From: an uncultured Bacilli bacterium
GTDB lineage: Bacteria; Bacillota_I; Bacilli_A; RFN20; CAG-826
Direction of reading: 5' to 3'
Length of the DNA: 64,000 bases
Assembly: GCA_944358985.1 (NCBI GenBank)
Contig: CALVSI010000002.1
Span: 51,413 to 115,412, forward strand
Part shown: piece after piece, positions 6,980-52,365 of the stretch
Numbering within the stretch: the first letter of the stretch is position 1
Layout: each line of letters begins with the position of its first letter
Made by a program: the position numbers and the translations under genes
The notes under the pieces: model-generated
What the model was told of the DNA's origin: nothing
Database searches by the model: none
The model's input: the letters and a program-made list of their open reading frames with translations, nothing else

Positions 6980-8265
6980 TTTTTAAAATATTTACCAATC
7001 ATTTCATTGTTAACACAATGTTTCTCAATAATCTCTTTATATAAATATCCTGATGTTCTAATATGGCATAAATTATTTTCATAATCGTATTGAACCAAAC
7101 CAAATTTTGCACTTTCCCCTTCTAACCATTCAAAATTATCCATTAAAGTCCAGTAGTAATATCTTTTAACAAATTTTAAATCTTTAATAGCGTATAAGTG
7201 TGAATAGATAAATTCTTTTCGAAATTTGTCTTCTTTATCAGCGGTCCCATTTTCAGTCACATAAATATCTTTTTTAAATAGACTATAATATTTTTTAAGC
7301 ATTTTGTTAAAGCTCGATGGAGCAATCGCCCAACCTAAATCGTTTTGATAATATTTTTCATTTGGAGAATAAGAAAAATTCGCTACTTCATTTTGAGTGT
7401 AAAAATTAATTCCCAAATAATCCATATATGATTTCTTTTTGATAGATAATAAACCGAATGGAAAAACAAATCTTTTACCGCTCATGGCAAATAAACAGGC
7501 ATTGTTAAAACATTTATCAAAAATTTTAGTTTCGATTTTGTTTATTAATTTATTATCTTTACTAACAAAATCTTGAATGTGCATAGCAAAGCCAACATTT
7601 GTTTTTGAATCAATTTCTTTAATTGTTTTATAAGCTAATCTATGTGCTAAAGACATATTCTTCATAACTTTAATAGTTTTTGTTAATGATTTTTCTTCAT
7701 TTAGCCAAATTCCAAAGAAAAAAGAATTTACCGCGTATACATTTGGTTCATTAATTGTGCAATAATCGCTAACCAATCCCTTTAATTTTGTCGTTATATA
7801 TTTAACATATTTTATAAAATAAATTATGTTTTTCTTTTTTAAAAAACCTTTCTTTTCTTCAAACCAAATAGGATGAGAAAAATGATGAAGAGTAACAAAA
7901 GGTAAAATATTATTTTTCTTTAATATTTGAATTTGATCAATATAATGTTGCATAACTTCTTCATCAAAATAATTTTCTTTTGGATTCAATTTGGCCCAAT
8001 CAATTGAAAAACGATAACTTTGTATGTTTAATGATTTCATTAAATCAATATCGCGCACATAAAATTTATAAGATTGATTACAACGTAAAGAAGAAGTTTT
8101 ATCTTTAATTTTTCCTTTTTGACAAAATAGTGTCCAATTGCTATTTTTATCATCACCTTCTATTTGTGTTGACGCTGTTGCGACTCCAAGTAACAAATTT
8201 TTATCCAGTTTAAAAGGAACGAATTTATCTAAATTAATGTCTTTTAATATATACTCTGGCTTCAT
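6976..8265 (-). CDS. GH1 beta-glycosidase (beta-glucosidase/beta-galactosidase type, probably not the phospho-form).
   Basis: 'TINEPN' acid/base and 'YVTENGTA' nucleophile motifs. Lacks the C-terminal S-x-S-K-K-S-Y phosphate-binding motif of 6-P-beta-glucosidases. Converging TAA overlap with galK. Confidence 0.75.
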   Translation of the reverse strand: MKPEYILKDINLDKFVPFKLDKNLLLGVATASTQIEGDDKNSNWTLFCQKGKIKDKTSSLRCNQSYKFYVRDIDLMKSLNIQSYRFSIDWAKLNPKENYFDEEVMQHYIDQIQILKKNNILPFVTLHHFSHPIWFEEKKGFLKKKNIIYFIKYVKYITTKLKGLVSDYCTINEPNVYAVNSFFFGIWLNEEKSLTKTIKVMKNMSLAHRLAYKTIKEIDSKTNVGFAMHIQDFVSKDNKLINKIETKIFDKCFNNACLFAMSGKRFVFPFGLLSIKKKSYMDYLGINFYTQNEVANFSYSPNEKYYQNDLGWAIAPSSFNKMLKKYYSLFKKDIYVTENGTADKEDKFRKEFIYSHLYAIKDLKFVKRYYYWTLMDNFEWLEGESAKFGLVQYDYENNLCHIRTSGYLYKEIIEKHCVNNEMIGKYFKN

Positions 8266-9910
8266 AAGGCATCAAGTAGTTTAAATCATTATTGTAATTT
8301 TTCAAAATGCATTCATATTTATCAAGTTCTATAGATAATTTATTAGGTAATTTTATAATGTTATTTTTAAAAGAACAAATAACAAGCATTTCACTATCAT
8401 TATCATTTCTTTTGTATATGAATAAATTTTTATTGTTTTTATATAGCAATTTAAAATTGCCATTTTTAATAACGCTATATTTTTTCCTAATCTCAATTAA
8501 TTTTTGATAATAACGATATATGGAATGATGACTTTCCAAATCTCTTTTTACATTAATACGATTTTTATTTTTATTGACCCTTAACCAAGGCTCTTTCTTT
8601 GAAAATCCACCATAAATTGAATCATCCCAACACATCGGCGTTCTAGCATTATCTCTTGATTGTTCTAAAATATTCTTTGTTATTAATTTCCTAACAAAGT
8701 AATTTTTAGAACACAAATTCAACATGTTATGTGTTTCAACATCTTTTATTTCATCAACGTTTTCAAAATATGCATTAGTCATGCCTATTTCTTGTCCTTG
8801 ATAAATAAATGGGGTGCCTTTTAACATCATATACGATGTAGCAAGCATCATTGCAGAAGGACGACGAAATTTTTTATCATCGGTTAAAAATCTTCCTACA
8901 CTTCTTCTTTGATCATGATTTTCCAAAAATAATGGATACCAAATATTATTTTTATCAATGTTGTTTTCCCATTTATTTATGACTTTTTTAAATCTTTTCA
9001 ACGAAAATTTTCTTTTTAAATATTTAACACCAAAATAGTTATCACAATCTGTATGTTCAAAACTAAAAGCCATATCTAACTCTTCTCTTTTGGGGTCACA
9101 TAATTTTTTTAAATCTTCCATAGAAGAGAAAACTGTTTCACCAACGGTCATGCAATCATAATCTTTTAAAGCTTCTGTATATAATTGATGTAAAAATTCA
9201 TGCAATCTTGGTCCATTAATATAGGCATCGCTTCCAGTTAAGATTAATTTAGGAAAACGTGATTTAAAATCTTGTTTTTTACTAATTAAGTTAATGACAT
9301 CGCATCTAAAACCATCCACTCCTAAATCAAGCCAAAATCTTAAAATGTCCACTACTTCTTTTCTAACCTTTGGATTTTCCCAATTTAAATCAGGTTGTTC
9401 TTTACTAAATAGATGTAGATAATATTCATCAGAATTTTCATCAACTTTGCTCCAAGTACCTTCACCAAAAAAACCTTGCCAATTATTTGGCGGTTTTTTA
9501 TTATTTTTCTTTCCTTTTTTAAAATAATAATAATCATGATATGGACTTGACTTATCACTTATTGCTTTTAAAAACCATTCGTGTTTATCACTAGTATGAT
9601 TTACTACTAAATCCATCAAGATTTTAATTCCGAGATTATGAGCTTTTTTTATCAATTCTTTCACATCATTAAGCGTCCCAAATTTTGGATAAATATCTTT
9701 ATAATTTGCTATATCATAACCATTATCAACTTGTGGTGAATCAAATATAGGAGAAAGCCAAATACAATTAATGCCAAGTTCTTTTAAATAATCTAGTTTT
9801 GAAATAATTCCTTTAATATCACCAAAACCATCATCATTGCCATCACAAAATGAACGTGGATAAATTTGATAAATAATAGCGTCTTTATACCAATTTGTGT
9901 GTTTAGACAT
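8234..9910 (-). CDS. GH13 alpha-glucosidase / oligo-1,6-glucosidase family.
   Basis: 'DLVVNHTSDKHEWF', 'GVDGFRCDVINLI', 'GETV' and 'LENHDQRR' GH13 regions I-IV. AGAGGAA RBS. Confidence 0.85.
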   Translation of the reverse strand: MSKHTNWYKDAIIYQIYPRSFCDGNDDGFGDIKGIISKLDYLKELGINCIWLSPIFDSPQVDNGYDIANYKDIYPKFGTLNDVKELIKKAHNLGIKILMDLVVNHTSDKHEWFLKAISDKSSPYHDYYYFKKGKKNNKKPPNNWQGFFGEGTWSKVDENSDEYYLHLFSKEQPDLNWENPKVRKEVVDILRFWLDLGVDGFRCDVINLISKKQDFKSRFPKLILTGSDAYINGPRLHEFLHQLYTEALKDYDCMTVGETVFSSMEDLKKLCDPKREELDMAFSFEHTDCDNYFGVKYLKRKFSLKRFKKVINKWENNIDKNNIWYPLFLENHDQRRSVGRFLTDDKKFRRPSAMMLATSYMMLKGTPFIYQGQEIGMTNAYFENVDEIKDVETHNMLNLCSKNYFVRKLITKNILEQSRDNARTPMCWDDSIYGGFSKKEPWLRVNKNKNRINVKRDLESHHSIYRYYQKLIEIRKKYSVIKNGNFKLLYKNNKNLFIYKRNDNDSEMLVICSFKNNIIKLPNKLSIELDKYECILKNYNNDLNYLMPYEARVYIKRH

Positions 9911-14159: not shown

Positions 14160-14876
14160 TTATTCTTCTTTGTCCTTTACTTGTGCATCCACACTAACTG
14201 TTCGTTTATAATTTTCATCAACATCATTTTTAAAATTATAATCATAAAGAAGTAAGTTTGACAAAAGAAGATAAAAAGAAATACTGCTGAAAGCTTGGAA
14301 AACAAGTGGCCATTGATTGTGCGCTGATTCAAAAAATATTGAATTAACACCAAGTAAGATAATAAATACAACTGCAAAAATAAAACCTAAAATAGCAAAA
14401 ATAGCACCGACTACACCACAAACAAAACCGATAAGTGATAAAGGTTTAATTTTTACAAAGTAAGATAAAATAAACATTACAAATAAAGCAAAAATAAAAA
14501 TAAAACCAAGCAAGTCAAAAATTAAATAAACACCATATGGCCATGATGGCATAATTTCACTATTTAAATTTGCTGAAATATATTCTCCTTGACCGATATT
14601 TACAAACGCTGATGTTCCTGCCGATATCATAATAATATAAAATCCAATATTAAACAGTGTTTTCCTTTTTGTTATTATCCCAAAAATAATAAAAGCAACA
14701 ATTGTTATATTAAAAATAAAATTCAAAAACATTGAAACATCAAATGAATAAATAACCCAATATCCGACACTATAAACAAATCTTGATAAGACATATACAC
14801 CGCTAAAAACCATAATAAAAATAGAAGACAAAGTTTTTAAATGTAATTTTTCAATTATCATATTTATTGTTTTCAT
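14160..14876 (-). CDS. Polytopic membrane protein of unknown function.
   Basis: About 7 predicted TM helices. Start placed at internal ATG (14874-14876) preceded by GGAGGAT; the upstream 48 codons of the track ORF look non-coding. Confidence 0.5.
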   Translation of the reverse strand: MKTINMIIEKLHLKTLSSIFIMVFSGVYVLSRFVYSVGYWVIYSFDVSMFLNFIFNITIVAFIIFGIITKRKTLFNIGFYIIMISAGTSAFVNIGQGEYISANLNSEIMPSWPYGVYLIFDLLGFIFIFALFVMFILSYFVKIKPLSLIGFVCGVVGAIFAILGFIFAVVFIILLGVNSIFFESAHNQWPLVFQAFSSISFYLLLSNLLLYDYNFKNDVDENYKRTVSVDAQVKDKEE

Positions 14877-15005
14877 ACTTAATCGTATCCTCCAAAAATG
14901 ACAACAAATTCTATCTATACATATTATATAGGATTTATGAAACAAATTTAAATAAATTTGAAAATTGGAAACATCCATAAAATTGGACACCAAATAGTGA
15001 TAAAC

Positions 15006-15034
15006 TTGACAAAAAAACAAAATAATAGTTTAAT
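15006..15034 (+). promoter_or_regulatory. Candidate sigma-A-type promoter (TTGACA - 17 nt - TTTAAT) for the sipW operon.
   Basis: Sequence read directly. About 95 nt upstream of the ATG at 15131, which has an AAAGGAGAA RBS. Confidence 0.4.
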
Positions 15035-15130: not shown

Positions 15131-15907
15131 ATGAGCAAATCTTACAAAAAAGCGATAACAGTTGGCGTTGCTGCATTTAGCGCGGTTGCACTCTTAACGA
15201 CAGGTACCGCAGCATTTATTTTGGCAACGGAACAAACTAAAACAACAACTGGAAACGTCACAGTTGGACAAGTAGTTGATAACAACATCGTTTTAAAAGT
15301 CAATGCACCAACAAATGAGATTGTTTTTGATGCATCAAGCGGTGATACAACTGGTAAAGTTCAATGGGATGGAACAGATAGTGAGAATTTAACCACTAAA
15401 GTTACTGGCTATGTCTTACCTCAAGAATTTGCCACTGCTTATGATAGTGGAACTACTAGCTTTGATTCTGATTCACAAAGTGCATTAGCGGCTACTCTTG
15501 CTAACTATGATTTATATTGGACATTAACAATTTCCACTGATGGTGCAGAAGAGACTGGTGATAAAGATGCTTTTGAAGGATTAGTTTCTTACTATACTGG
15601 TAATGCTAGCAGTTCAGAAAAACATACCGCATCTAGCGAAGTTGCAGTATTAGATAGCGGCATTTATTATGGTGCTGATTCTAAAAATGTTTTAACTCCA
15701 AATGAAAATGGTGAATTTGAAATTACTCTTTCATTTACTTGGGGAAGTTTATATGGAAATAAGAATCCGTCTGTTTATTTCGATGAAGACTCTCAAGCAA
15801 ATATAGATCATGCTTCCTTAGTTTCTAGTTTAGAAGCTATGAATACACTTGATGGCATCAATTTTGATATTACCATCTATGCAAAATATAAAGCAGCAGG
15901 AAATTAA
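15131..15907 (+). CDS. TasA/camelysin-like secreted protein with a SipW-cognate-type N-terminal signal.
   Basis: 258 aa (TasA is 261 aa). N-terminal K-rich region plus hydrophobic helix, followed by 'TTGTAAFILATEQ', which resembles the 'GGGTWAAFND' cleavage region of TasA. Sits immediately upstream of the SipW-like peptidase. Confidence 0.6.
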   Translation: MSKSYKKAITVGVAAFSAVALLTTGTAAFILATEQTKTTTGNVTVGQVVDNNIVLKVNAPTNEIVFDASSGDTTGKVQWDGTDSENLTTKVTGYVLPQEFATAYDSGTTSFDSDSQSALAATLANYDLYWTLTISTDGAEETGDKDAFEGLVSYYTGNASSSEKHTASSEVAVLDSGIYYGADSKNVLTPNENGEFEITLSFTWGSLYGNKNPSVYFDEDSQANIDHASLVSSLEAMNTLDGINFDITIYAKYKAAGN

Positions 15908-15965
15908 TTAAGATCATTAATAATTAATTATTTAATTTTTTTAAATAATTCGTTAATATAAGTTC

Positions 15966-16964
15966 ATGACAAACGAGGAAATTTTAACTCTTGTAGTTAC
16001 TTCGTTGTGTGTTGTTTCATTATCTATAGTTTTTACATTGTTTTATGTCCACTACTACAAAAACTCAATTAAAACTATTGATGAAGGACGTAAAGATATT
16101 GAAATTATTGATGATAATATAGACGAACAACTCAAAGCCAAAAGCAAAAAACATAAAATATTTGTTATTGTAATTAAAACAATATCATATTTATTTAGTG
16201 CATTGGTTTTTGGGGTGTTCGTCTTGTCTGTAATTAATCGTATCTCTGGCGGATCAATTGTTGTTGGAAATTCCACTGTCATGGTCGTGGAAACTGGTTC
16301 AATGTCATATAAAAATGAAGTTAACACTTATCTCGAATCACATGACAATCAAATAGCCACTTATTCAATAATTGGTCTTGATAAAGTTGAAGAAAATGAA
16401 TTAAAACTATACGACGTCATCGCATTTAAAAATAATGAAAATGAAATCATAATTCATAGAATTATTGGTATTGAAAATGACCGGTATTTAACACGTGGTG
16501 ACGCAAACGATTCAACGGACCCTTATCGTCCTGTGTTTGAAGATGTTATAGGGGTTTATAATGGGTTCAATATTCCCTACTTAGGAATATTTATAATATT
16601 CCTTCAATCTAATTCTGGTATTGTTACAGTGATTGCTATTCTATATTGCCTAATATTATTTGGAATATTATCAGATAAAATTGAGAGAAAATTAGAAACA
16701 AGAAAAAAAGAACTTCTAGAAGTTATTGACGTTGATATCAACAACAAAAACTTAAATCATGATTTTATAGAACGAATATATTACAAAGGCTATGTATATA
16801 GTTTTAATAACAATAATTTTATTGGAAAAGAAAAAATTAAAGACGATGATATTAATACCCCAAATGAAAAATCTGAGATTATAACAATAATAGAAGATAA
16901 AGATAAAAATCTAACTATAAAAAAAGATAAAATTCATCATGCCGATGAGGAGGAGAAAGTATGA
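15966..16964 (+). CDS. sipW: Signal peptidase I of the archaeal/ER type (SipW-like, S26B), with an extra N-terminal TM hairpin and a charged C-terminal tail.
   Basis: Catalytic 'VVETGSMSY' matches 'SGSMEP', and 'YLTRGDANDSTDP' matches SipW 'ITKGDNNxxxD'. C-terminal TM segment followed by a K/E/D-rich tail. No RBS in front of this ATG, so the start is uncertain. Confidence 0.75.
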   Translation: MTNEEILTLVVTSLCVVSLSIVFTLFYVHYYKNSIKTIDEGRKDIEIIDDNIDEQLKAKSKKHKIFVIVIKTISYLFSALVFGVFVLSVINRISGGSIVVGNSTVMVVETGSMSYKNEVNTYLESHDNQIATYSIIGLDKVEENELKLYDVIAFKNNENEIIIHRIIGIENDRYLTRGDANDSTDPYRPVFEDVIGVYNGFNIPYLGIFIIFLQSNSGIVTVIAILYCLILFGILSDKIERKLETRKKELLEVIDVDINNKNLNHDFIERIYYKGYVYSFNNNNFIGKEKIKDDDINTPNEKSEIITIIEDKDKNLTIKKDKIHHADEEEKV

Positions 16965-18781
16965 AAAAGATCTACTTTACAAGAAAAAATTTAATCGAAC
17001 TAGGATTTGTATTTCTATTTTTTGCATTATTTTTATTTGTTTATGTTTGTGTTGATGGAAACCACACATTTATGGCAAAAGAAAATCCAGTTGAATTAAT
17101 ATATTTAGGTTTTAATTTCCCAAGTGTTGGATTAGGCATAATGGGATATTTAGTTGGACTTTTATTCACTATCTATGGCGTAGTTTATGATGCTGGACTA
17201 ATTTTAATTAGACGATTAGTTAAGTTTAGAAAAGAAAGATTTTGGTCCACAAAATGGGTATTAATAAATATTGGTTGGTTAATACTTTGTTTATTATTGT
17301 CTCTTGGTCTTGGAGCAGGACTTGCCGCGATCATTGAACCAGAAAACGTTTCACTAATAATGATGGCTTTTGGAGGTTCATTACTTATTAGTGTTTTGGT
17401 TTATATCATAGCTGCAATGATAATCGGTGCGGTTTTCTTATTAATTGTTAACTTTAAAAACATTGATAAGCCCTATCGTTTCTTTAATATTGATGAGCAA
17501 GAACAATATGAACAATCAATAGATGAAGAAATAAAACAAGAAGAAGATTCACAAGCTAATATTGAACAGCAATTTGGCGATACACCAATTAATAAAAACA
17601 TATCAAATAACAATATCGTTGGACAAGGTGGTGCTGTTATGAGTGCAACCACGTCCGCTAGTAATGAAATTGTTTTAGGAGATCGAGAAAAAGTATTTCC
17701 ATCTTTATCTAGCATCGATAAAGATTTTTCTGGTTTTGAGGAAAATAACTTAGCGGATATTGATATTAATTTAGACAAATTATGTAACGAATTTAGAAAC
17801 TATCTTTGTAAAGAAGAAAATTTATATTTTGATATTGAAACAATTAGAAGTTTTATTTCCGCGTTAGCGACTTCAAGAATTATTATTTTAGAAGGTTTAT
17901 CTGGTACTGGTAAATCATCACTACCTAGATATTTTTCAAAATTTATTTCTAGCGATTCTACTTTTATCGCAGTTCAAACTACATTTAGAGATAAATCATC
18001 GTTGATTGGTTATTTTAATGATTTTAGTCAAACTTATAATGAAACAGATTTTTTAAAAGCATTGTATAAAGCAAACTATACAAAAGACCATATCAATGTC
18101 ATGGTTTTGGATGAATTTAATATTGCTAGAGTGGAATATTATTTTGCAGATTTTTTAAGCGTATTAGAGTATCCAAAACAAGATTGGAAAATTCGCGTGA
18201 TGAATTTACCATACGAATTTGACGCTCCAACAATGTTGCATGATGGCGTTTTAAAAATCGAAGAAAATACATATTTTGTATGTACAGCAAACAAAGACGA
18301 TTCAACTTATTCTATTTCTGATAAAGTCTATGATAGAGCTATAATTCTTGACTTTGATGATAAAAACGAACCATTTACTGTTAAGGAAGAAGTTAAACCA
18401 ATTCGTTTAGGATATCATCAATTACAAAAATTGTTTAATGATGCATTAAAAGATAAAAACAATCGTCTTACTGATGACGATTTAAAACAATTCAGTGCAA
18501 TTACAAATTATGTATTAGAAAACTTCGATGTTGCTTTTGGTAATCGTATTTTGAACCAAATTAACACATTTGTCCCAGTCTATGTCAAAACAGGCGGAAC
18601 AAAACTTGAAGCATTAGATTTTATGTTTGCGCGTAAGATTTTATATAAGTTGGAAGGACGATTTGAAGATTACGTCAAAAATAATCTTATTACTTTAAAA
18701 CATTTGATTGAAAAAACTTATTCAACAAACGAATTTAAAATATCAAAGCGTATGATTGATCAAATGATTAAGCGTTTATAA
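16961..18781 (+). CDS. Membrane-anchored AAA_5 (McrB/MoxR-type) ATPase.
   Basis: About 5 N-terminal TM helices, an acidic Q/E-rich linker, then Walker A 'LEGLSGTGKSS', 'VQTTFRDKSSLIGYF', Walker B 'VMVLDEFNIARVEYYFADFLSVLE' and sensor 'FVCTANKDDSTYSISDKVYDRA'. These are collinear with E. coli McrB 'IFIIDEINRANLSKVFGE...GLMNTADRS'. GAGGAGGAG RBS. ATGA overlap with sipW. Confidence 0.7.
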   Translation: MKKIYFTRKNLIELGFVFLFFALFLFVYVCVDGNHTFMAKENPVELIYLGFNFPSVGLGIMGYLVGLLFTIYGVVYDAGLILIRRLVKFRKERFWSTKWVLINIGWLILCLLLSLGLGAGLAAIIEPENVSLIMMAFGGSLLISVLVYIIAAMIIGAVFLLIVNFKNIDKPYRFFNIDEQEQYEQSIDEEIKQEEDSQANIEQQFGDTPINKNISNNNIVGQGGAVMSATTSASNEIVLGDREKVFPSLSSIDKDFSGFEENNLADIDINLDKLCNEFRNYLCKEENLYFDIETIRSFISALATSRIIILEGLSGTGKSSLPRYFSKFISSDSTFIAVQTTFRDKSSLIGYFNDFSQTYNETDFLKALYKANYTKDHINVMVLDEFNIARVEYYFADFLSVLEYPKQDWKIRVMNLPYEFDAPTMLHDGVLKIEENTYFVCTANKDDSTYSISDKVYDRAIILDFDDKNEPFTVKEEVKPIRLGYHQLQKLFNDALKDKNNRLTDDDLKQFSAITNYVLENFDVAFGNRILNQINTFVPVYVKTGGTKLEALDFMFARKILYKLEGRFEDYVKNNLITLKHLIEKTYSTNEFKISKRMIDQMIKRL

Positions 18782-18791
18782 TGGAGAGCAT

Positions 18792-20171
18792 ATGCGGCTT
18801 AATAATGTTCAAACGCTTTTAAATACATCTGATGAATTACTTAATGTCTTTGCAAAAGTAGAAACAAAAAAAGATGCATATAAGGCTTTAATTAATCATC
18901 AACTTAAAGACATTACAAAAGATGACTTTAAATTGGACTATGAGTTTTTAGATTCTTTAAACTCTATTTTAAACACTATTTTAAATATATGTAGGAATCA
19001 TTATAAAACTACTAAAAATAATGAGTTAATATTAAGGAGTTCTTTAATTTCTAATTTTGATAATCAAAGTTTTTTTAAAACCATGAAAGACTTTTCTCTT
19101 TGGAAGAAAAAAGATAGTAATATGGTTCCAGAATTTGCATATAGTAACGAATTAGTGGATGATAATAATACTTATGAAAATCGTGTTGTGATGTCATTAG
19201 TTAAACATATTGAACTCATAATAAAAAATTATGATTATTATTATGATAAAAAGATTTTAATATTAGAAAATACGGCATCTAAAAATGACTTTACATATGG
19301 AAGTATGTTTTATAAGCAAAACAAAGCATTGATAAGCAATCTTTTAACAAATAAATATCAAGATTTTATTAAAATTAGTGAATACATCAACAAATTAAAA
19401 AAGAAAATAAAAAAGATTGAAAGCACTCCATTTTATCATTCACTTAAATCTTTCCATCCAATAATTGGAGAGATTATTATGACTAATATTTTCAAAGAAA
19501 ATTTAAATTACAATAAAATATATCGTTTTTATAAATTAACAAATAGTATTATCGATGTTAAAAAAGGAAATATAGCGTTAACAAATTACGTTTTATATTT
19601 GCTAATCCAATCTTTACAAAGATTAGGATATGAATATGTTAATCGTTATCCATACGCTAAATACACTTCATATGGTAAAAATTTAATTGTTTCTGATAAA
19701 ACTTTTTATTTTAAAAATTCTATGTTTAATATATCAATTGAATATGAAGGAGATATAAAAGCCTATATCATTGATATTTCCAATTCAAACAATGAAAATG
19801 ACAATTCCAAGAATTTATTAATACCTTATTACGCTATTAACGGCCAAATAAACATAAATATGTCAAAAATTGATTGTAGTTTGTACAATAATATTATTAT
19901 TTTTGGCTATGATTTTGTTAAAAAATATAAAAATAACGAATATAAGAAGATTAACATATCTCTTAATCAAAAAGATTATGAAATCATAGATGTTCTTTTA
20001 TCATCTTTTACATACACGATTAATGCTTTAAAAGATATATATGAAACGATGTGTCCAATATGCGGAGCACATCAAGTAGAACCAACTTCAAATGATATTG
20101 AATGCATGAATTGTAATAATCACTATTCATTTTTAAATGACAAACTTGTTTGGATTAAATCAATAGTTTAA
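18792..20171 (+). CDS. Partner protein of the AAA_5 ATPase, with a C-terminal zinc ribbon. Possibly McrC/PD-(D/E)xK-like, but this is unproven.
   Basis: 459 aa, no TM. C-terminal 'CPICGAHQVEPTSNDIECMNCNNH'. A possible nuclease-like 'LIVSD...x19...EYEGDIK' motif. Sits in the position where McrC follows McrB. Confidence 0.4.
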   Translation: MRLNNVQTLLNTSDELLNVFAKVETKKDAYKALINHQLKDITKDDFKLDYEFLDSLNSILNTILNICRNHYKTTKNNELILRSSLISNFDNQSFFKTMKDFSLWKKKDSNMVPEFAYSNELVDDNNTYENRVVMSLVKHIELIIKNYDYYYDKKILILENTASKNDFTYGSMFYKQNKALISNLLTNKYQDFIKISEYINKLKKKIKKIESTPFYHSLKSFHPIIGEIIMTNIFKENLNYNKIYRFYKLTNSIIDVKKGNIALTNYVLYLLIQSLQRLGYEYVNRYPYAKYTSYGKNLIVSDKTFYFKNSMFNISIEYEGDIKAYIIDISNSNNENDNSKNLLIPYYAINGQININMSKIDCSLYNNIIIFGYDFVKKYKNNEYKKINISLNQKDYEIIDVLLSSFTYTINALKDIYETMCPICGAHQVEPTSNDIECMNCNNHYSFLNDKLVWIKSIV

Positions 20172-20183
20172 AGGAAAAGTATT

Positions 20184-20948
20184 ATGGAAGAAGAAATTAA
20201 ACAACAAGCAATAGCAATTAAAATTTCTAATTTAAATAAGTCATATGGCAAAAAACAAGTTCTCCATGATTTAAATTTAGAAGTCTATGAAGGAGAATTA
20301 TTTGGTTATGTTGGAAAAAATGGTGTTGGTAAATCCACTACTATTGATTGCTTAATAGGTGCTAAAAAATTTGATAGTGGACAAATTTTAATTAATGGAT
20401 TTGATATTAAAAAAGAATCATATAAAGCTAAAAAACAATTTGGTTATGTCGCTAGCGAACCAACGACATATGAAATGATGACAGGTTATGAATATTTGCA
20501 ATTCATTGGCTCTGTTTATGATATGAACGATGAAACATTCAAAAATAATGTTACTTATTTATCAAACAAATTAGACTTGCCTGATTCTGATTTAAAAATG
20601 GTTATATCTAGTTACTCACATGGTATGAAACAAAAACTTTGCTTGATAGCATCATTATTATCAAATCCAAAAGTGTGGATATTAGATGAACCCACTGTCG
20701 GTTTAGATATTATGGTATTTGAAACATTAAAAGAAATGATGCAAGAATTTGTAAAACATGGCAAAACAATTTTTATCACATCGCATAATATTGATTTAGT
20801 TGCTAAAATTTGTGATCGTGTTGCATTAGTAAATAAGGGTAAAATTCAAAAAATAATAGATTTAAAACAAGATCCTGATAAACGCTATCAGTTAAATAAA
20901 ATCTTTTTAGATATGTATAAGGAGGATAAAGATGATTGCCTTGCTTAA
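20184..20948 (+). CDS. EcsA-like ABC transporter ATP-binding protein.
   Basis: Walker A 'GKNGVGKSTTI'. Atypical signature 'YSHGMKQK', like EcsA 'FSKGMKQK' rather than LSGGQ. Walker B 'ILDEPTVGLD'. Confidence 0.7.
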   Translation: MEEEIKQQAIAIKISNLNKSYGKKQVLHDLNLEVYEGELFGYVGKNGVGKSTTIDCLIGAKKFDSGQILINGFDIKKESYKAKKQFGYVASEPTTYEMMTGYEYLQFIGSVYDMNDETFKNNVTYLSNKLDLPDSDLKMVISSYSHGMKQKLCLIASLLSNPKVWILDEPTVGLDIMVFETLKEMMQEFVKHGKTIFITSHNIDLVAKICDRVALVNKGKIQKIIDLKQDPDKRYQLNKIFLDMYKEDKDDCLA

Positions 20949-29873: not shown

Positions 29874-32423
29874 TTAGTTCGTATGAAGCACTAATACACC
29901 ATAAGGTGGAACAGTGCATTCATTTTGTGAAACATTTGCACCATTTAAGGCGTAAGGTGTGCCACCTTCAACATTAATAGTAGCGGTCATATTGCTCTTA
30001 CCGGTATTAATATAAACGGCAAATGAACCATTATCTGATGTGACAACAAAATGATAAACATCAACACAATCATTAAATTCATAACCATTGAATTTAGCAT
30101 TTTTACCATACATTTTCTTAATGGTTGTTAATTGTTTGAAGAAATCAAGCATATCATTATCCGTATCGCTTTCACTTTGTTCGTTTGCGGATTTAATAGT
30201 GCTGTTATAAGAGTCCCATTCAACATCATAACTATTAAATGAATAATCTGTTGTCGTATCATCTCCCCATTTAAATGGTTGACGATACCATAGGTCTTCA
30301 TTATTTTCATTACCATACATTTCAATGTGCTTATTGGTATTACCAGACATACCTAATTCATCACCATAATAAATCCATGAAATACCTGGAGTTAATATTG
30401 TTGAAGCTGCACCTACTCTTGCTCTTTGAATTTGTTCAGTAGTGCCAGTCACATTCGTCGTATCTGACATTTGATTTATTAATCTAGCCGTATCGTGGTT
30501 AGAAGTAAATGGCGAATTAATAAAATCGCCTCTTTTTCCACCAGGAACGGTTGTTGAAGTACCATCTAATTGAATATTGCTGCTGGTAGTAAAACAATCA
30601 TATGTTTCAGCTTGATGTAAACTAGATGCTTGTGAAGCGGTAATTGTGCCAGCGCCTCCACCATCATATAACCATTCACGATTATGGTAATATAAACCAA
30701 AATCAAATTGAGAATCTAAGGCTTGGTAATATGGTGCAATTCTTTTGCCCCAACCATCAAAGTTTTCACCAACTAAGAAACATTCTGGATAAATAGCTTT
30801 TAATCGATTAGCAAATTCTTTCCAAAAATTAACATTTTTAGTTAAATCGCTAGAATAGTCAAAATCCACTGTGACCTGTTCCATTTTTTCTTCGTCGTAA
30901 TATGTTCTTTCGCCAGTATCAGAAATAATAATATCACCAGCAAAATCATCAACCTCATCACGCATGTAAATATGTTTAACAGCATCCAATCTAAAGCCAT
31001 CTAGTCCAAAACCCAACCAATATAAAGCCATGTTAATAACTAAATCTCTTGTTGATTGACAATCATAATTTAATTCCGCCATGTCGGAACCAAACTTACC
31101 ATAATAATAATACTTAGATTCACCATCTTTATACCAATCTGGATGATCTTCAACATTTACTTGGACATAATTGCCATTTTGATATAACCAAACTTTATCA
31201 CCTTCAAATTTCCAATGATACATATCACGATAATTAATTTCATTACCAAATTCATCATGGCCAACTTCTCCAAGTTGAGATTTTTCAAACCAAACATTGT
31301 TTTTAGAAGTGTGATTTATAACTAAATCCATCAAAACTTTCATTCCTTTTTGATGTGCTTTATAAATTAATTCGCGATAATCGTTAATAGTACCAAATTT
31401 AGAATCTACTTCATAAAAATCGGTAATATCATAACCATGATAAGATTCACTAGCTTGAATTGGTGTTAGCCATAAAACTTGAACACCTAAATCTTCTAAA
31501 TAATCTAATGAATTAATAATTCCGCGAATATCACCTAAACCATCACCATTGCTATCTTTAAATGATGCAACAAAAATTTGATATCCAACACCTAATGATT
31601 CAAATGAATCAGCGGTAGAAGAAACACCATAAATACTAGAAGAAGAATCCACATTTGTTTCGCTTCGATATTGACCAGTTGTATCTGTCACTATCGGATT
31701 AGTGGCAGCTTCATCACTATAAGTAAAAGTAAATTGTTTTACCATTCCTTGAATACAATAAATGTGAACATATCCTTTTTTAGCTAGTTCAACATCAAAA
31801 TCAGTAATATAGGTATTTGAACCACCATCGCTTGTCCAATGACTTCCACCACCCATGCTATTTTGATCAATAATTAAAAAGCCTAATCTTGTCGCACCTG
31901 ATAAAGAAACTGGTTCGCCAGTTCTTCCACCTAATAAATCAGTGCGATTTAAATCTATATCCATAACGCGACCGCTTTGGTCGATAGATTGTCCGCTTCC
32001 TCCAATGTCATTCATCCAGGAAGTAGACATTTCATAAAAGACATCTTGAACAGTTTGATTAGAAGCACCCCAAAGTGTTCCTTCTGAATCAATTGGGGCG
32101 TTTTGCCAAAGCCAAATTGCATAGTTATTATACTCTTCCATTGTCGCGTTATCTCTTCGATAGTGAATATATAAATGACCTGGCTCTGACCAAGTATCAG
32201 TCCAAGCATCATAATCATCCACCATTGTGGTGGAAATTGGTGACTCAGATGTTGTACTTGTGATAACGCTAGTTGTTGTTGTGCTTGTTGTGGAAGATGT
32301 TGTACTTGTGATAACGCTAGTTGTCGTTCCACTTGTCGTGGAAGATGTTGGATTATCTGGCGTACAACTAGTTACTGTTAGAGTCAACATTAATAGTGAT
32401 ATCAATAAATATTGTTTTTTCAT
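29874..32423 (-). CDS. GH13 alpha-amylase-family lipoprotein with a Ser/Thr-rich linker.
   Basis: Lipobox 'VTSC'. 'DLVINHTS', 'GFRLDAVKH', 'FLVGENFDGW' and 'FTSNHDTAR' GH13 regions I-IV. 849 aa. Confidence 0.85.
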   Translation of the reverse strand: MKKQYLLISLLMLTLTVTSCTPDNPTSSTTSGTTTSVITSTTSSTTSTTTTSVITSTTSESPISTTMVDDYDAWTDTWSEPGHLYIHYRRDNATMEEYNNYAIWLWQNAPIDSEGTLWGASNQTVQDVFYEMSTSWMNDIGGSGQSIDQSGRVMDIDLNRTDLLGGRTGEPVSLSGATRLGFLIIDQNSMGGGSHWTSDGGSNTYITDFDVELAKKGYVHIYCIQGMVKQFTFTYSDEAATNPIVTDTTGQYRSETNVDSSSSIYGVSSTADSFESLGVGYQIFVASFKDSNGDGLGDIRGIINSLDYLEDLGVQVLWLTPIQASESYHGYDITDFYEVDSKFGTINDYRELIYKAHQKGMKVLMDLVINHTSKNNVWFEKSQLGEVGHDEFGNEINYRDMYHWKFEGDKVWLYQNGNYVQVNVEDHPDWYKDGESKYYYYGKFGSDMAELNYDCQSTRDLVINMALYWLGFGLDGFRLDAVKHIYMRDEVDDFAGDIIISDTGERTYYDEEKMEQVTVDFDYSSDLTKNVNFWKEFANRLKAIYPECFLVGENFDGWGKRIAPYYQALDSQFDFGLYYHNREWLYDGGGAGTITASQASSLHQAETYDCFTTSSNIQLDGTSTTVPGGKRGDFINSPFTSNHDTARLINQMSDTTNVTGTTEQIQRARVGAASTILTPGISWIYYGDELGMSGNTNKHIEMYGNENNEDLWYRQPFKWGDDTTTDYSFNSYDVEWDSYNSTIKSANEQSESDTDNDMLDFFKQLTTIKKMYGKNAKFNGYEFNDCVDVYHFVVTSDNGSFAVYINTGKSNMTATINVEGGTPYALNGANVSQNECTVPPYGVLVLHTN
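32248..32345. repeat. About 2.3 copies of a 48-bp tandem repeat inside the amylase gene, encoding the T/S-rich linker.
   Basis: 'gatgttgtacttgtgataacgctagttgt' occurs at 32248 and again at 32296. Encodes '...TSVITSTTSSTTSTTTTSVITSTTS'. Confidence 0.7.
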
Positions 32424-32871: not shown

Positions 32872-35800
32872 TTACATCTTAAATATGGCGAATTGTCTTG
32901 CACCCATTGAAATTCGACCATTGCCATAAGTAATCCCATCCATCTCGCTTGTATTTTGAGCGGAATTATAAACTAATTGTGCTTGTCCTACTTCTGACCA
33001 GCTAATATCGCTAGCGATTCTTCCGGTGAAGAAAATCCAATAACGATCACCAGTATTTGCCTCATCGCCTGTATAGAAGTAAACACCAATCATAGTTGCA
33101 CCATTAGATTGTGATTCGTCATCGTTATTATACCAAGCTGACAAATGATCAGGTGCACTTGGGAAAGACATATGACCAGTGAATTGTTTTCTTGTTTGGA
33201 ATAATCTTACAAATCCTTGATAAACTTCATAAACACTGACATCTTGTCCTTGATATTCGATATTTATTTTACGATCGTATTTAAATGAATTAGTTTCATC
33301 TGAACTACGATAAGAGTTATGAGAAATAATTTTTCCAAACATTGTTACTTCACTAGTGGAGGTCACAACACTTGGATCTTCAGAATAAGTTGGATATTCT
33401 GGGTAAGGACGTACCTCATATGATTCATTAGCAGGATCAACTTCCTTACTTCTGAATAGTTCTTCACCGCCTTGAATAAAGGCAATGCCTTGTGAAAACG
33501 CTACACTAGCATGAGCTGCTAAAGAAGCATAAGCAACATCTAGCGGATTAGGTTCAAGACTAGCCGGTGGGTTTTGAGATGTCGTGCCAGTATAATCAGC
33601 AAGAGTATAATTTAATTGATCAAATAAAGCGTAATTATCATGACATGAAACATAATTTATTGTTTGATATGGATTGGCACCAGGAGCATATGTATTAGTA
33701 CCTTTAATCATATCAGCAACATAATTAGCGTTGTTACCATCTCTTCCTTGGGCAATAAATCCCCAACCAGGATAAGCGTTATTGGTTCCCCAACCGCCAT
33801 CATTACCACCTCTAACGCCATTTCTTCCAGCATCATTAAATCCACCCAAATGGCCAGGTGATGTTTCACTAGCGTATAAATCTGAATAAACATGGGTGTT
33901 ATCAGTTCCAACAGTGCCTTCTTCACCACCATAACCACCACTTGTCCATCCTTCACCATATACAACAAAGTCTTTGTCAATGTTATATAAAGTGTCTTTA
34001 ACTTCACGCATCGTTTCAGTATCAATAAGACCCATTAAGTCAAATCTATAACCTTTGACTTTATATTCTGTTGCCCAAAATACAACACTATCAACGATGA
34101 ATTTACGCATCATCGTAGATTCTGTTTTTACTTCATTTCCACATCCAGCACCATCTTTATAATATCCATCTTCTGTCATTCTAAAATAATAGCCTGGCAT
34201 AATCTTTTGGAAATTAGAAGATGTTGCACTGCTAACGTGGTTATAAACAACGTCCATAATGACACGAGTATGATTATCATTAAGAGCGTATGCCTTAATT
34301 AACTCTTTAAATTCTTTAACACGAACTTCACCATTGTATGGATTAGATGAATAACCACCTTCCACGACATTATAATTTAATGGATTATATCCCCAGTTAA
34401 ATGAAACATTAGCTTCATTATTAGATTGATCAAATACTGGAAGAATTTGAATTGCATTAACTCCTAATTCTTCAATATGATCAAAACCAGTAGTTACGGT
34501 TATTCCATCTTCACTATATGTTGTACCATTTTCATAGAAAGCTTGATATGTTCCAGGAGTGGATGTTCCATTCCAAGTATCATCCATTGTTAAATCACGA
34601 ATATGAATTTCATAAACCGCAAGATCACTAGGAGCATTAATATCAAATCCTTCTTGGCCATCCCAAACAAGTGGAACTTCACCCCAACCATCTGGATCGG
34701 TCGTATCCAAATCTAATATCATTCCTCTTTCGCCATTAATTCCCGCTGACTTAGCGTATGGATCAACAACTTCATTTATACCTTGATTGTTATAAACATA
34801 ATATGTGTAATATTTGCCGTTTAAATCTTCTTCGACTTCGCATGACCAAACACCGCCAGCCATGTAATTCATACGATATAATTTATATGAATCGTTAATC
34901 ATAGAACCACCTGTTGGATCTAAATAACGAGGTGTGCCCGTTCTATATATTCTTAATTCAACACGTGCAGACATTGGAGACCAAAGTCTAAATGTTGTTT
35001 TCTCTTTTGTATAAATTGCACCTAATTGGCCATCATAGGTGTAATATTTTTCAAATCTTTCATCGCCATATAACAAATCATAGTCAACTGGTCGAGTTTT
35101 TGGTCGTTCAGGATAATTGACAAATGAACAGCGAACTTGATATACCACTGACGGAGGCATATGGTATTGGAAAGATATAGTAATTGTTGAACTTGGTTCG
35201 CTGACAGTTGCACTTAGTATGGCATAGCTTTCATAACGAGAATTTTGTTCATTTAAACCTAGATTATAATAACCAGGAGTTAAAGCATAAACTGTATAAC
35301 CACTAATAGGGCCAGTTGCTCTTACTTCAATTGTTTTCCAATCGGTAAACTTAGCATATGTTACTTTATCACCTAAAGTTTCTTCTAAAGTAGCGAATAC
35401 GTCTATACTACCACCTGTTCCATCAATCGCCCACACTTCTAAATTACCTTCTTCATCGGGTGGAAATTTATCATATTCAATAGTGGTATCTGTCGATTGA
35501 CCTGCCCAAGTATTCATTACTTTGATAATAAAATAAAAAGTATCATGACTTGGAAAATCTCTTTTTGGATAAAGAGTAATATACATTCCAAAATCATCAA
35601 CGCCATCGGCTTCTAATTCGACACCATCTAAACCACCAGCCCAAACATAAAATCTTTTCGTATCATATGATGTTGGTGGATCCATTTGATAATGAATAGT
35701 AAGAGTTTCTGGAATGTTAATTGTCTCTTCTTCAGAGGCATAACGTGGTCCTAAATATTCACCTTTAGGATCATCACTAAATTGTGCCATGACTTGTTCA

Positions 35801-35892
35801 TCTTCTTTTGAAAGTGTTTCTGGACTTGTATTTGCACAAATTCCAATTGTCATGACTAATAAACTTAGCAAAGCTAAATGTCTTGCTTTCAT
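32872..35892 (-). CDS. pulA: Pullulanase (GH13, type I), secreted or lipid-anchored.
   Basis: 'YNWGYNP' pullulanase signature. 'GYRFDLMGL', 'YGEGW' and 'YVSCHDNY' catalytic regions. 1006 aa. Confidence 0.85.
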   Translation of the reverse strand: MKARHLALLSLLVMTIGICANTSPETLSKEDEQVMAQFSDDPKGEYLGPRYASEEETINIPETLTIHYQMDPPTSYDTKRFYVWAGGLDGVELEADGVDDFGMYITLYPKRDFPSHDTFYFIIKVMNTWAGQSTDTTIEYDKFPPDEEGNLEVWAIDGTGGSIDVFATLEETLGDKVTYAKFTDWKTIEVRATGPISGYTVYALTPGYYNLGLNEQNSRYESYAILSATVSEPSSTITISFQYHMPPSVVYQVRCSFVNYPERPKTRPVDYDLLYGDERFEKYYTYDGQLGAIYTKEKTTFRLWSPMSARVELRIYRTGTPRYLDPTGGSMINDSYKLYRMNYMAGGVWSCEVEEDLNGKYYTYYVYNNQGINEVVDPYAKSAGINGERGMILDLDTTDPDGWGEVPLVWDGQEGFDINAPSDLAVYEIHIRDLTMDDTWNGTSTPGTYQAFYENGTTYSEDGITVTTGFDHIEELGVNAIQILPVFDQSNNEANVSFNWGYNPLNYNVVEGGYSSNPYNGEVRVKEFKELIKAYALNDNHTRVIMDVVYNHVSSATSSNFQKIMPGYYFRMTEDGYYKDGAGCGNEVKTESTMMRKFIVDSVVFWATEYKVKGYRFDLMGLIDTETMREVKDTLYNIDKDFVVYGEGWTSGGYGGEEGTVGTDNTHVYSDLYASETSPGHLGGFNDAGRNGVRGGNDGGWGTNNAYPGWGFIAQGRDGNNANYVADMIKGTNTYAPGANPYQTINYVSCHDNYALFDQLNYTLADYTGTTSQNPPASLEPNPLDVAYASLAAHASVAFSQGIAFIQGGEELFRSKEVDPANESYEVRPYPEYPTYSEDPSVVTSTSEVTMFGKIISHNSYRSSDETNSFKYDRKINIEYQGQDVSVYEVYQGFVRLFQTRKQFTGHMSFPSAPDHLSAWYNNDDESQSNGATMIGVYFYTGDEANTGDRYWIFFTGRIASDISWSEVGQAQLVYNSAQNTSEMDGITYGNGRISMGARQFAIFKM

Positions 35893-51304: not shown

Positions 51305-52365
51305 TATTTCTTACCTCCTATCTTTGACAATTCTTTTTTATATTCTTCTAATTCTATTTTGTTTGCACGTACAAAATGTCCTTCCTCAACTTCATAAAAT
51401 TGTGGAACATCATCTTCTGTATAATCATGCATTAAAGGATCATAAACAACTATCTTTTTTCGTTTTTCTATTTGTGGATCAGGAATAGGCACTGCACTTA
51501 ATAATGATTTAGTGTATGGATGTAAAGGTGCGGCAAATAATCTTTCAGCAGGTGCTAATTCCACTAGTTTACCAGCATAAATTACAGCGATACGATCGGA
51601 AATATATTTAACAATACTTAAGTCGTGAGCGATAAATAACACTGTTAAATTATTGCGTTCTTTAAATTCTCGAATGAGATTCAAAACTTGTGCACGTATT
51701 GACATATCAAGTGCACTAATTGGTTCGTCAGCAATAACAAACTCTGGATTCATTACCATACATCTTGCAATACCAATTCTTTGTCTTTGACCACCTGAAA
51801 ATTCATGTGGATAACGATTTAAATATTCAGGTCTTAAACCAACCTTTTCCATAATATCGCTTATTTTATTTAAACGATCTTCTTCATTATCATACATGTG
51901 ATAAGCTCTTAAACCTTCGCTGACAATATAATCAATATTGGCTCTTTCATTTAATGAAGCACTTGGGTCTTGGAAAATCATTTGGATTTTGGTTTTTAAA
52001 AGTTTTGCTCTTTCTTTTGAAATTTTTCCAGAAATAGGAATGTTATTATAAGTAATAACGCCGCTTCTAACAGGATTAATACGAATGATAGCACGTCCAA
52101 TAGTGGTTTTTCCTGAACCAGATTCACCAACTAAACCCAAAATCTCGCCACGACGGATATCTAAATCTAGATGATTTATAATTACTCGCTCTGAACCACC
52201 CGTCTTAAATGAAATTTTTACATCTTTCATTTTTACGATGATATCATCGGGGTTTTCTTTTTGTGAAACAGCAAATTCATCAACTTCTGGTTGATATCTT
52301 TTTTTATTTAAATGCAATTTTTCCGCTAAAGAAGAAATATGTTTGACATTCTTTTTATTTTTCAT
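51304..52365 (-). CDS. oppF: Oligopeptide ABC transporter ATP-binding protein.
   Basis: Walker A 'GESGSGKTT', 'FSGGQRQR' and '[10 protein letters not shown]'. Confidence 0.85.

Follow-up and report, generated by a model that had tools for sequence, protein, structure and literature searches.

What does a relative of the restriction motor McrB do when it is anchored in the membrane and encoded directly behind a signal peptidase of the SipW type? The question is raised by a 64,000-nucleotide stretch of DNA from an uncultured Bacilli bacterium (hereafter the window; positions 51,413 to 115,412 of contig CALVSI010000002.1), in which two adjacent genes at 16961-20171 code for a membrane-anchored McrB-like protein and a zinc-ribbon partner. 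McrBC is the textbook GTP-driven restriction enzyme. A first-pass annotation of the window had proposed a membrane-tethered, McrBC-like restriction module guarding DNA entry or, alternatively, an AAA+ chaperone or translocase for the substrates of the adjacent SipW. The answer that we favour, at slightly better than even confidence, is that the two genes encode an exapted McrBC-type pair that serves a SipW-dependent surface structure as a GTPase switch or motor, not as a DNA cutter; on this view, what was once a motor of defence has probably been taken over for making or controlling a fibre on the cell surface. Both open reading frames are present on the + strand as annotated, with 606 aa and 459 aa. 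The first of them, referred to below as the GTPase, has the following parts.

16961..18781, +: membrane-anchored McrB-like (AAA_5) GTPase homologue, 606 aa (motifs, profile alignments, AlphaFold2 model)
16982..17458, +: four-helix transmembrane (TM) anchor, residues 8-166, predicted N-in/C-in (hydropathy, AlphaFold2 helices, invariant columns)
17459..17683, +: acidic helix (177-204), then disordered linker (204-240) (AlphaFold2, composition)
17894..17920, +: Walker A, G-L-S-G-T-G-K-S-S, residues 312-320 (homologue alignment, McrB alignment)
18104..18121, +: Walker B, V-L-D-E-F-N, residues 382-387 (homologue and McrB alignments)
18290..18301, +: N444-K-D-D447, McrB-family Nx(x)D signature (alignments; motif definition PMC11090510)

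The AAA+ part of the GTPase found its best PDB match in McrB (phmmer), with the motifs aligned in order, so the motif-by-motif alignment with McrB proposed in the first pass holds. These motifs are Walker A G312-LSGTGKS-S320, which aligns to GPPGVGKT of McrB, followed by V338-Q-T-T-F-R-D, Walker B V382-LDEFN, T-A-N444-K-D-D-S-T, and V-Y-D458-R459. Among 32 homologues with 45-80% identity, L313-K318 and S320 of Walker A are invariant, and G312 and S319 are near-invariant. The other invariant or near-invariant columns are V338-Q-x-T-x-R-D344, L383-D-E-x-N387, T442-A-N-K-D-D-S-T449, D458-R459, G527-N-R529, and G566-R-x-E569. Pfam AAA_5 is matched by the GTPase at 22.8 bits (cut-off 22) and by 31 of the 32 homologues. 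The GTPase also matches the PADLOC candidate model PDC-M26A (E=6e-37); no paper that we found mentions the name PDC-M26.

AAA_5 also holds the MoxR proteins. An AAA+ chaperone of the MoxR type, acting in the maturation or insertion of a partner protein as in RavA-ViaA, CbbQ-CbbO, and NorQ-NorD, could be read from the Foldseek comparison of the whole GTPase model, where RavA came first (E=7e-5), NorQ was listed, and McrB fell outside the top 50. However, all of these matches were generic AAA+ ones, MCM, Lon, and dynein appearing alike, and the model has low-confidence loops. Since this comparison does not discriminate McrB from MoxR, the profile comparisons were relied on. A profile of the 32 homologues aligned with E. 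coli McrB at an hhalign probability of 90% (E=1.6e-6, 164 columns), whereas the same profile reached only 3% with the MoxR protein RavA, over 41 columns covering the Walker A stretch only. Furthermore, no VWA domain was found by Pfam among the eight proteins of the operon, and the partner is McrC-like. A MoxR-type chaperone is therefore scarcely credible. On the profile evidence, the GTPase is of the McrB lineage and not of the MoxR type, as the first-pass annotation had preferred. Of its idea of a chaperone or translocase for SipW substrates, the notion of an NTPase serving the SipW system comes closer to the evidence, but an exapted McrBC-type GTPase fits better than a chaperone.

The position of the GTPase among the McrB relatives can be narrowed further. 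N444-K-D-D447 aligns with N-T-A-D of McrB, and N-x-D-D is kept in all relatives. N-K-D-D can be read as NxD with a further D, the form found in the branch that contains CoCoNuT and CoCoPALM (pilus-assembly-linked McrBC), or as NxxD. The close similarity of the GTPase to that of a CoCoNuT-type locus, L071 (tblastn, E ~1e-90), supports the NxD branch, and the GTPase appears to belong with CoCoNuT and CoCoPALM among the McrB relatives.

In the AlphaFold2 model of the GTPase (predicted local distance difference test score, pLDDT, 77), TM helices span residues 8-30, 59-89, 97-125, and 127-166, in agreement with the four segments given by hydropathy. The first-pass figure of about five helices is thereby corrected to four, while the predicted membrane anchor itself proved real and is kept with its four helices across the GTPase clade. 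The charge distribution suggests, by the positive-inside rule, that both termini and the ATPase domain are cytoplasmic. The acidic linker noticed earlier was recovered at residues 171-240, with 13 D/E against 3 K/R, and the conserved juxtamembrane motifs are FTRKN (6-10), N42-P43, R85, and N164…D169-x-P171…F175. Residues 1-170 consist of the four TM helices and include no N-terminal DNA- or nucleic-acid-binding specificity domain. A kinship of this region with FlhB was considered and rejected. The GTPase profile matched FlhB in PDB 8z5s (E=1.2e-4) over residues ~103-220 (17270-17620), which take in TM3-TM4, an 'IDxPFxxF/W' juxtamembrane motif, and the charged helix after it, but hhalign against E. 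coli FlhB was null. Pfam Bac_export_2 matched no member of the GTPase family, and the resemblance is probably compositional or limited to a short motif.

The second gene stands where mcrC would stand, and its product can be divided as follows.

18792..20171, +: McrC-like partner, 459 aa, predicted cytoplasmic, no TM segment
18927..19622, +: DUF2357-type McrC N-terminal domain, ~residues 46-277 (helical bundle plus beta-hairpin extension)
19632..20024, +: beta-rich domain, residues 281-411, at the position of the McrC nuclease (conservation; weak Foldseek match)
19746-19760, +: E-G-D-I-K string, residues 319-323 (read from the sequence)
20052..20156, +: C4 zinc ribbon, C421, C424, C438, C441 (conservation, eL43 profile match)

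The partner of the window itself had no match in any of the domain and defence libraries scanned; in PADLOC only the GTPase matched a model, and that a candidate one. Its positional orthologues, by comparison, score above the Pfam cut-off for DUF2357 (24.5-43 bits; cut-off 23.3) in all of the more distant lineages tested, which supports the earlier proposal that the protein in the McrC position is also McrC-like. In McrC, DUF2357 forms the N-terminal part, the one that touches the McrB ring and activates it (PMC11090510). The AlphaFold2 model of the partner (pLDDT 91) has a DUF2357-type bundle with hairpin strands 73-82 and 104-124, and a Foldseek comparison with E. coli McrC extends over 419 columns but is weak (E=0.034). 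A word-indexed search with the low-complexity partner, by sequence and by profile, returned only 5-6 relatives, and an exhaustive representative search was then used. In 126 homologues, nearly all conserved residues lie in residues 55-250 (R82, D100, W104, K105, P113, E114, D123, Y128-E129-N130, T231-N232, and Y240) and in the zinc ribbon. The C-terminal CxxC...CxxC ribbon described in the first pass, C421-P-I-C424 and C438-M-N-C441, is a real feature of the family: C421, C424, and C441 are invariant, C438 is present in 125 of the 126 homologues, and the partner profile matches an eL43-type zinc ribbon (E=0.002).

Between these two parts, conservation in residues 281-411 is limited to hydrophobic core positions. 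The earlier suggestion of a D...E-x-D-I-K nuclease-like motif holds as far as the letters go, E-G-D-I-K being present at 319-323, but the string is not conserved and varies even in a 56%-identical orthologue. A check of the homologues for PD-(D/E)xK residues gave the same answer, as no column of residues 280-410 is at least 60% acidic or basic. Likewise, no nuclease domain of Pfam was found in the ~20 partners scanned. Given the lack of any conserved charged residue in residues 281-411, the beta-rich domain is probably an inactivated nuclease-derived domain. From the DUF2357 matches of the orthologues, the lopsided conservation, and the missing nuclease matches, the partner is judged to be a McrC homologue that has kept the activator module and lost the nuclease active site.

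A restriction enzyme of the McrBC type, tethered to the membrane and cutting DNA or modified DNA as it enters the cell, would draw on the McrB-like core and McrC-like partner in canonical gene order, on the zinc ribbon, and on the E-G-D-I-K string of the window partner. However, neither the string nor any acidic or basic residue of the putative nuclease region is conserved among the homologues, and the GTPase carries no DNA-binding domain. The operon is moreover fixed and co-diverging and is not part of a defence island, as described below. For these reasons, a restriction module guarding DNA entry is very improbable; it and the MoxR-type chaperone are both contradicted by the features tested.

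The setting of the pair is a compact operon. The window has a G+C content of ~27%, with open reading frames intact under table 11, and eight co-directional genes are packed on the + strand at 15131-26062, with gaps or overlaps between neighbors of at most ~60 nt. Besides the pair, the operon contains six genes.

15131..15907, +: secreted protein, 258 aa, with a SipW-type signal peptide (…LLTTGTAAF…), candidate fibre subunit
15966..16964, +: SipW-type (archaeal/ER-type) signal peptidase I, 332 aa (NCBIfam TIGR02228)
20184..20948, +: ATP-binding cassette (ABC) transporter ATPase, 254 aa (Pfam ABC_tran 2.8e-27; conserved position)
20932..22527, +: multi-TM permease, 531 aa (orthologue in L001 recorded as PF09847 12TM_1)
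22529..24952, +: exported or N-terminally anchored protein, 807 aa, no family assignment, in every full operon
24956..26062, +: lipoprotein, 368 aa, with a Flg_new (Listeria-Bacteroides repeat) domain (Pfam PF09479 6.3e-7), last gene of the operon

The sipW stop codon overlaps the GTPase start codon (ATGA). The flanks are of the housekeeping kind, namely CTP synthase, an epimerase, a ferredoxin-type protein, a flavoprotein, a phosphoesterase, and GH13 amylases, and no defence-island context is seen in the flanking genes of the window. Scans with Pfam, PADLOC, and NCBIfam recognized no effector of any kind in the operon. Promoters could not be told from background in such AT-rich DNA, where a scan gave 90 sites and 88 were expected.

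The conservation of this arrangement was examined in 89 loci gathered with the GTPase as bait. The GTPase family is large, with more than 3,600 full-length clusters at 90% identity that are 45-55% identical, and its named members come from metagenome-assembled genomes labelled Bacilli, Erysipelotrichaceae, or Clostridiales. A DUF2357 partner lies immediately downstream of the GTPase in 84 of the 89 loci; among the remaining five, four are visibly truncated at a contig end or split, and one (L075) has no partner by the partner hidden Markov model. SipW lies immediately upstream in 72 of the 89, and the identical eight-gene order occurs in ~50. In 34 diverged full operons, the GTPase averages 0.46 identity to its window counterpart; the ABC ATPase averages more (0.58), and the means are lower for SipW (0.40), the 807-aa protein (0.39), the lipoprotein (0.37), the permease (0.29), and the partner (0.27). 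For each of the other operon genes, pairwise identities are strongly correlated with those of the GTPase (Mantel r 0.72-0.92, p<=0.001). Gene order, mean identities, and Mantel correlations together indicate that the block is inherited as a unit and that the GTPase is strongly constrained. The 807-aa protein and the Flg_new lipoprotein, which are present in every full operon, co-diverge with the GTPase as well. One locus with the same eight genes, L009 (CAVHUN010000006.1; GTPase identity 47%), is titled 'uncultured Prevotella sp.', a label that is probably a binning error.

The more distant GTPases share 35-45% identity over residues ~230-606 and are of four kinds. The first has a single hydrophobic segment of ~40 residues (clade L072-L089) and is flanked by one or two SipW genes, and its neighbors carry TasA/camelysin-type signals (…STASYAWFS…). 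The second is a standalone four-TM GTPase with a zinc-ribbon partner amid housekeeping genes, with no SipW (L051, L062, L064, and L065). In the third, a GNAT domain follows DUF2357 in the partner, as found by scanning L060 and L066. The partners at L060 11089-14232, L066 11021-14392, and L068 7595-11167 measure 1,047-1,190 aa, next to GTPases of 800-870 aa with a four-TM region and with no SipW nearby. The fourth kind comprises two loci in which the GTPase has no TM segment and stands beside VWA, Ser/Thr kinase, PP2C, and UPF1-like helicase genes; in L071, VWA, Ser/Thr kinase, PP2C, UPF1-like helicase, McrB-like, and DUF2357 genes make up a CoCoNuT layout (PMC11090510). An unbootstrapped neighbor-joining tree groups the window clade with the CoCoNuT-like and the standalone four-TM pairs, apart from the single-TM, SipW-linked clade.

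The standalone pairs raise the possibility that the two genes form a self-contained membrane module, for example for regulation or quality control, which in this lineage shares a transcript with the surface-protein genes but has no mechanistic link to them. The partners with a fused GNAT domain point the same way (scanned in L060 and L066, presumed in L068). Such independence is difficult to reconcile with SipW standing directly upstream in 72 of the 89 loci and in two separate GTPase clades, with the overlap of the sipW stop and the GTPase start, and with the tight co-divergence of the GTPase with all operon genes. A module of this type is therefore rather improbable for the window.

The association with SipW gives the favoured exapted switch or motor its probable field of action. 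The upstream gene passes the NCBIfam TIGR02228 archaeal/SipW-type model with 59.8 bits (cut-off 51.85), which confirms the SipW adjacency assumed in the first pass. Its sequence contains the motifs GSM(111), HR(164), and GDAND(178), and the GSM, HR, and GDxN…D motifs we take, by comparison with B. subtilis SipW, to hold the catalytic Ser, His, and Asp. B. subtilis SipW has ~190 aa. With 332 aa, the window protein has an extra N-terminal TM helix (4-31) and a highly charged cytoplasmic tail of ~90 residues (241-332), on which the GTPase or its partner may dock. The secreted protein belongs to a family with the signal end …TG(F/T)AA(F/W)… and 1-6 paralogues per operon. A C-terminal motif of the family consists of W204-G205…P213, which are invariant, and a near-invariant F208.

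The exapted pair may work as follows. A four-helix anchor replaces the DNA-binding N-terminus of McrB and would hold a ring, probably hexameric, on the cytoplasmic side of the membrane. The partner has kept the DUF2357 bundle and finger that in McrBC plug into the McrB ring and trigger GTP hydrolysis. The operon as a whole would build, in uncultured Bacilli of the gut, a fibre or matrix on the cell surface from proteins processed by SipW, and GTP hydrolysis stimulated by the partner would link an energy supply or a checkpoint in the cytoplasm to the processing, export, anchoring, or polymerization of the subunits. This coupling would run via the TM domain of the GTPase and the neighboring membrane proteins. 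A membrane-bound switch or motor is suggested by the combination of an anchored NTPase of McrB lineage, a partner lacking a nuclease, their obligate pairing, their fixation in a SipW operon, and the housekeeping surroundings. We infer from these features the hexamer, the use of GTP, its stimulation by the partner, the fibre, and the target of the motor.

Several observations weigh against this interpretation. That the secreted proteins may form a fibre we infer from SipW and the type of signal, since no homology extends beyond the signal peptide. In hhalign with a TasA sequence, the signal peptide and cleavage region aligned and nothing else did, and a PDB profile search detected no homology of the mature part to TasA or any solved fibre subunit. 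TasA homology was set aside on this sequence evidence. The matches in that search were weak and unrelated (an archaeal pilin at 0.008, adenovirus fibre knobs); the archaeal one is the type IV pilin PilA2 of Natrinema (E=0.008), matched via the hydrophobic N-terminus. TasA fibres of B. subtilis are not known to need an NTPase, so no known step of fibre formation obviously requires a motor. The standalone pairs (L051, L062, L064, and L065) indicate that the pair can work without the rest of the operon. A collection of loci baited with the GTPase leaves operons that lack it out of sight. Finally, a relative of the GTPase is listed by PADLOC as a defence candidate, and plasmid relatives with 25-39% identity are found in defence-like contexts. 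One of these is part of a helicase / AAA ATPase / 'DUF2357 domain-containing protein' array, and in another an 'AAA ATPase' and a 'nuclease domain-containing protein' lie near a type I restriction-modification (R-M) gene.

The last points lend themselves to an immune function linked to the fibre. The pair could sit at the foot of the fibre, which is likely to serve phages as a receptor, and act there as a nuclease-free surveillance complex that senses infection or incoming nucleic acid through the zinc-ribbon protein; we regard this as unlikely. A response in which production of the fibre is shut down or altered, or dormancy or death is triggered, is held to be unlikely in the same degree. The McrBC ancestry fits such a role, as CoCoNuT systems, the nearest named relatives, are predicted defence systems, and so do the PADLOC candidate match, the plasmid relatives that have a helicase or type I R-M genes as neighbors, and an invariant zinc ribbon that could bind nucleic acid. 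Two records named 'Bacteriophage sp.' with relatives also fit. These are unannotated contigs from human faeces, MT835511.1 (39950-41206), with 31% identity over 99% of the GTPase domain, and MT837127.1, with 30% identity over 50% of it; the copies may be mis-assigned bacterial contigs or genuinely phage-borne. Nevertheless, the operon is without a recognizable effector and has housekeeping flanks. The mean identity of the GTPase (46%) exceeds that of five of the six other genes (27-40%), with only the ABC ATPase higher (58%), and its co-divergence with the operon is unlike the fast turnover and sporadic occurrence of defence genes. If the pair did guard the fibre against phages, it would be a nuclease-free immune system wired to a phage receptor.

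Returning to the switch or motor of a surface structure, a bolder version can be put forward tentatively, although it is more doubtful than the general proposal. The operon may represent an uncharacterized and widespread filament machine of Gram-positive bacteria, in which subunits are exported by Sec and cut by SipW. In contrast to TasA fibres, a domesticated McrBC GTPase ring in the cytoplasm, activated by a nuclease-dead McrC and working with an ABC transporter, would drive or gate the assembly, anchoring, or turnover of these subunits. If so, fibre biogenesis driven by NTP would gain a new class of system, and the recruitment of an immune motor to the cell surface would have a clear example. 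What makes the locus significant is that the two-protein core of McrBC is under strong purifying selection with its nuclease residues gone and an anchor added, in an operon that is very common in uncultured Bacilli of the human and animal gut. Should the pair drive or gate fibre assembly, surface filaments of Gram-positive bacteria would be found to have a further, energy-dependent way of forming, and the CoCoPALM branch would have a first function, with a documented defence motor turned to the cell surface.

Other genes of the window were noted in passing. A divergent gene immediately upstream of the operon (14160-15020, -) encodes a multi-TM protein of 286 aa with no family match. Farther away, a probably secreted protein with Endonuclease_1 and Big_2 domains (36921-39077, -) and three GH13 genes of the amylase/pullulanase type (8234-9910, -; 29874-32423, -; 32872-35892, -) suggest that the organism degrades extracellular DNA and starch.

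Compared with the type IV restriction enzyme McrBC of E. coli and T. gammatolerans (PDB 6HZ4, 6UT5, and 6UT6), the pair has Walker A and B, the Nx(x)D, and the Arg motif in the same order, a McrC-type N-terminal domain on the partner, and the gene order B then C. It differs in having a membrane anchor in place of the DNA-binding N-terminus, no conserved PD-(D/E)xK, and an added zinc ribbon, and in belonging to a surface-protein operon, whereas McrBC is encoded next to R-M genes. With the CnuB/CnuC pair of CoCoNuT systems it appears to share the NxD GTPase branch, with ~39-45% identity over the GTPase domain to the CoCoNuT-type loci L071 and L076. CnuC resembles the window partner in that it joins DUF2357 to a zinc ribbon and to a nuclease fold that is often inactivated (PMC11090510). 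In contrast to CoCoNuT, the window pair has no coiled-coil fusion, helicase, HEPN, or TerY-P triad, and it has a TM anchor and the linkage to SipW.

On the side of the surface structure, the operon resembles the matrix-fibre operons tapA-sipW-tasA of B. subtilis and sipW-bsaABC of C. perfringens, where SipW is likewise encoded beside secreted proteins with signal ends of the T-G/x-x-A-A-F/W type (PMC11580942). Neither of these operons includes an NTPase, a McrC-like protein, or an ABC transporter, and the single mention of 'McrB' in the C. perfringens bsa paper refers to the genotype of an E. coli strain.

The closest counterpart is CoCoPALM, a name given in one paragraph of a 2024 census to McrBC homologues that carry TM fusions and are associated with 'pilus assembly factors' of the signal-peptidase family; their description is deferred there to a future publication (PMC11090510). 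The supplementary text of that census contains nothing on CoCoPALM, and we found no later paper that uses the name and no test of its function. Because an association of McrBC homologues with signal-peptidase or pilus genes had already been named, the first-pass remark that either of its readings would be unusual has to be tempered. The window shares with CoCoPALM a McrB-like GTPase with N-x-D-[DE], an N-terminal membrane-spanning fusion, a DUF2357 McrC homologue, and genomic linkage to SipW-family signal peptidases and to secreted proteins with SipW-type signals. CoCoPALM was, however, described with an FtsB-like single TM and coiled coil on the GTPase and with coiled coils on both proteins (PMC11090510), whereas the window GTPase has a four-helix TM domain with a 28-residue acidic helix, and its partner is without a long insertion. 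No long coiled-coil insertion is visible on inspection of the AlphaFold2 models of the two proteins. An eight-gene operon with an ABC transporter, a protein of ~800 aa, and a Flg_new lipoprotein is likewise not described for CoCoPALM in PMC11090510. Judged by these sequence features, the single-TM clade fits the description of CoCoPALM, and the four-TM clade of the window appears to be a related but distinct variant.

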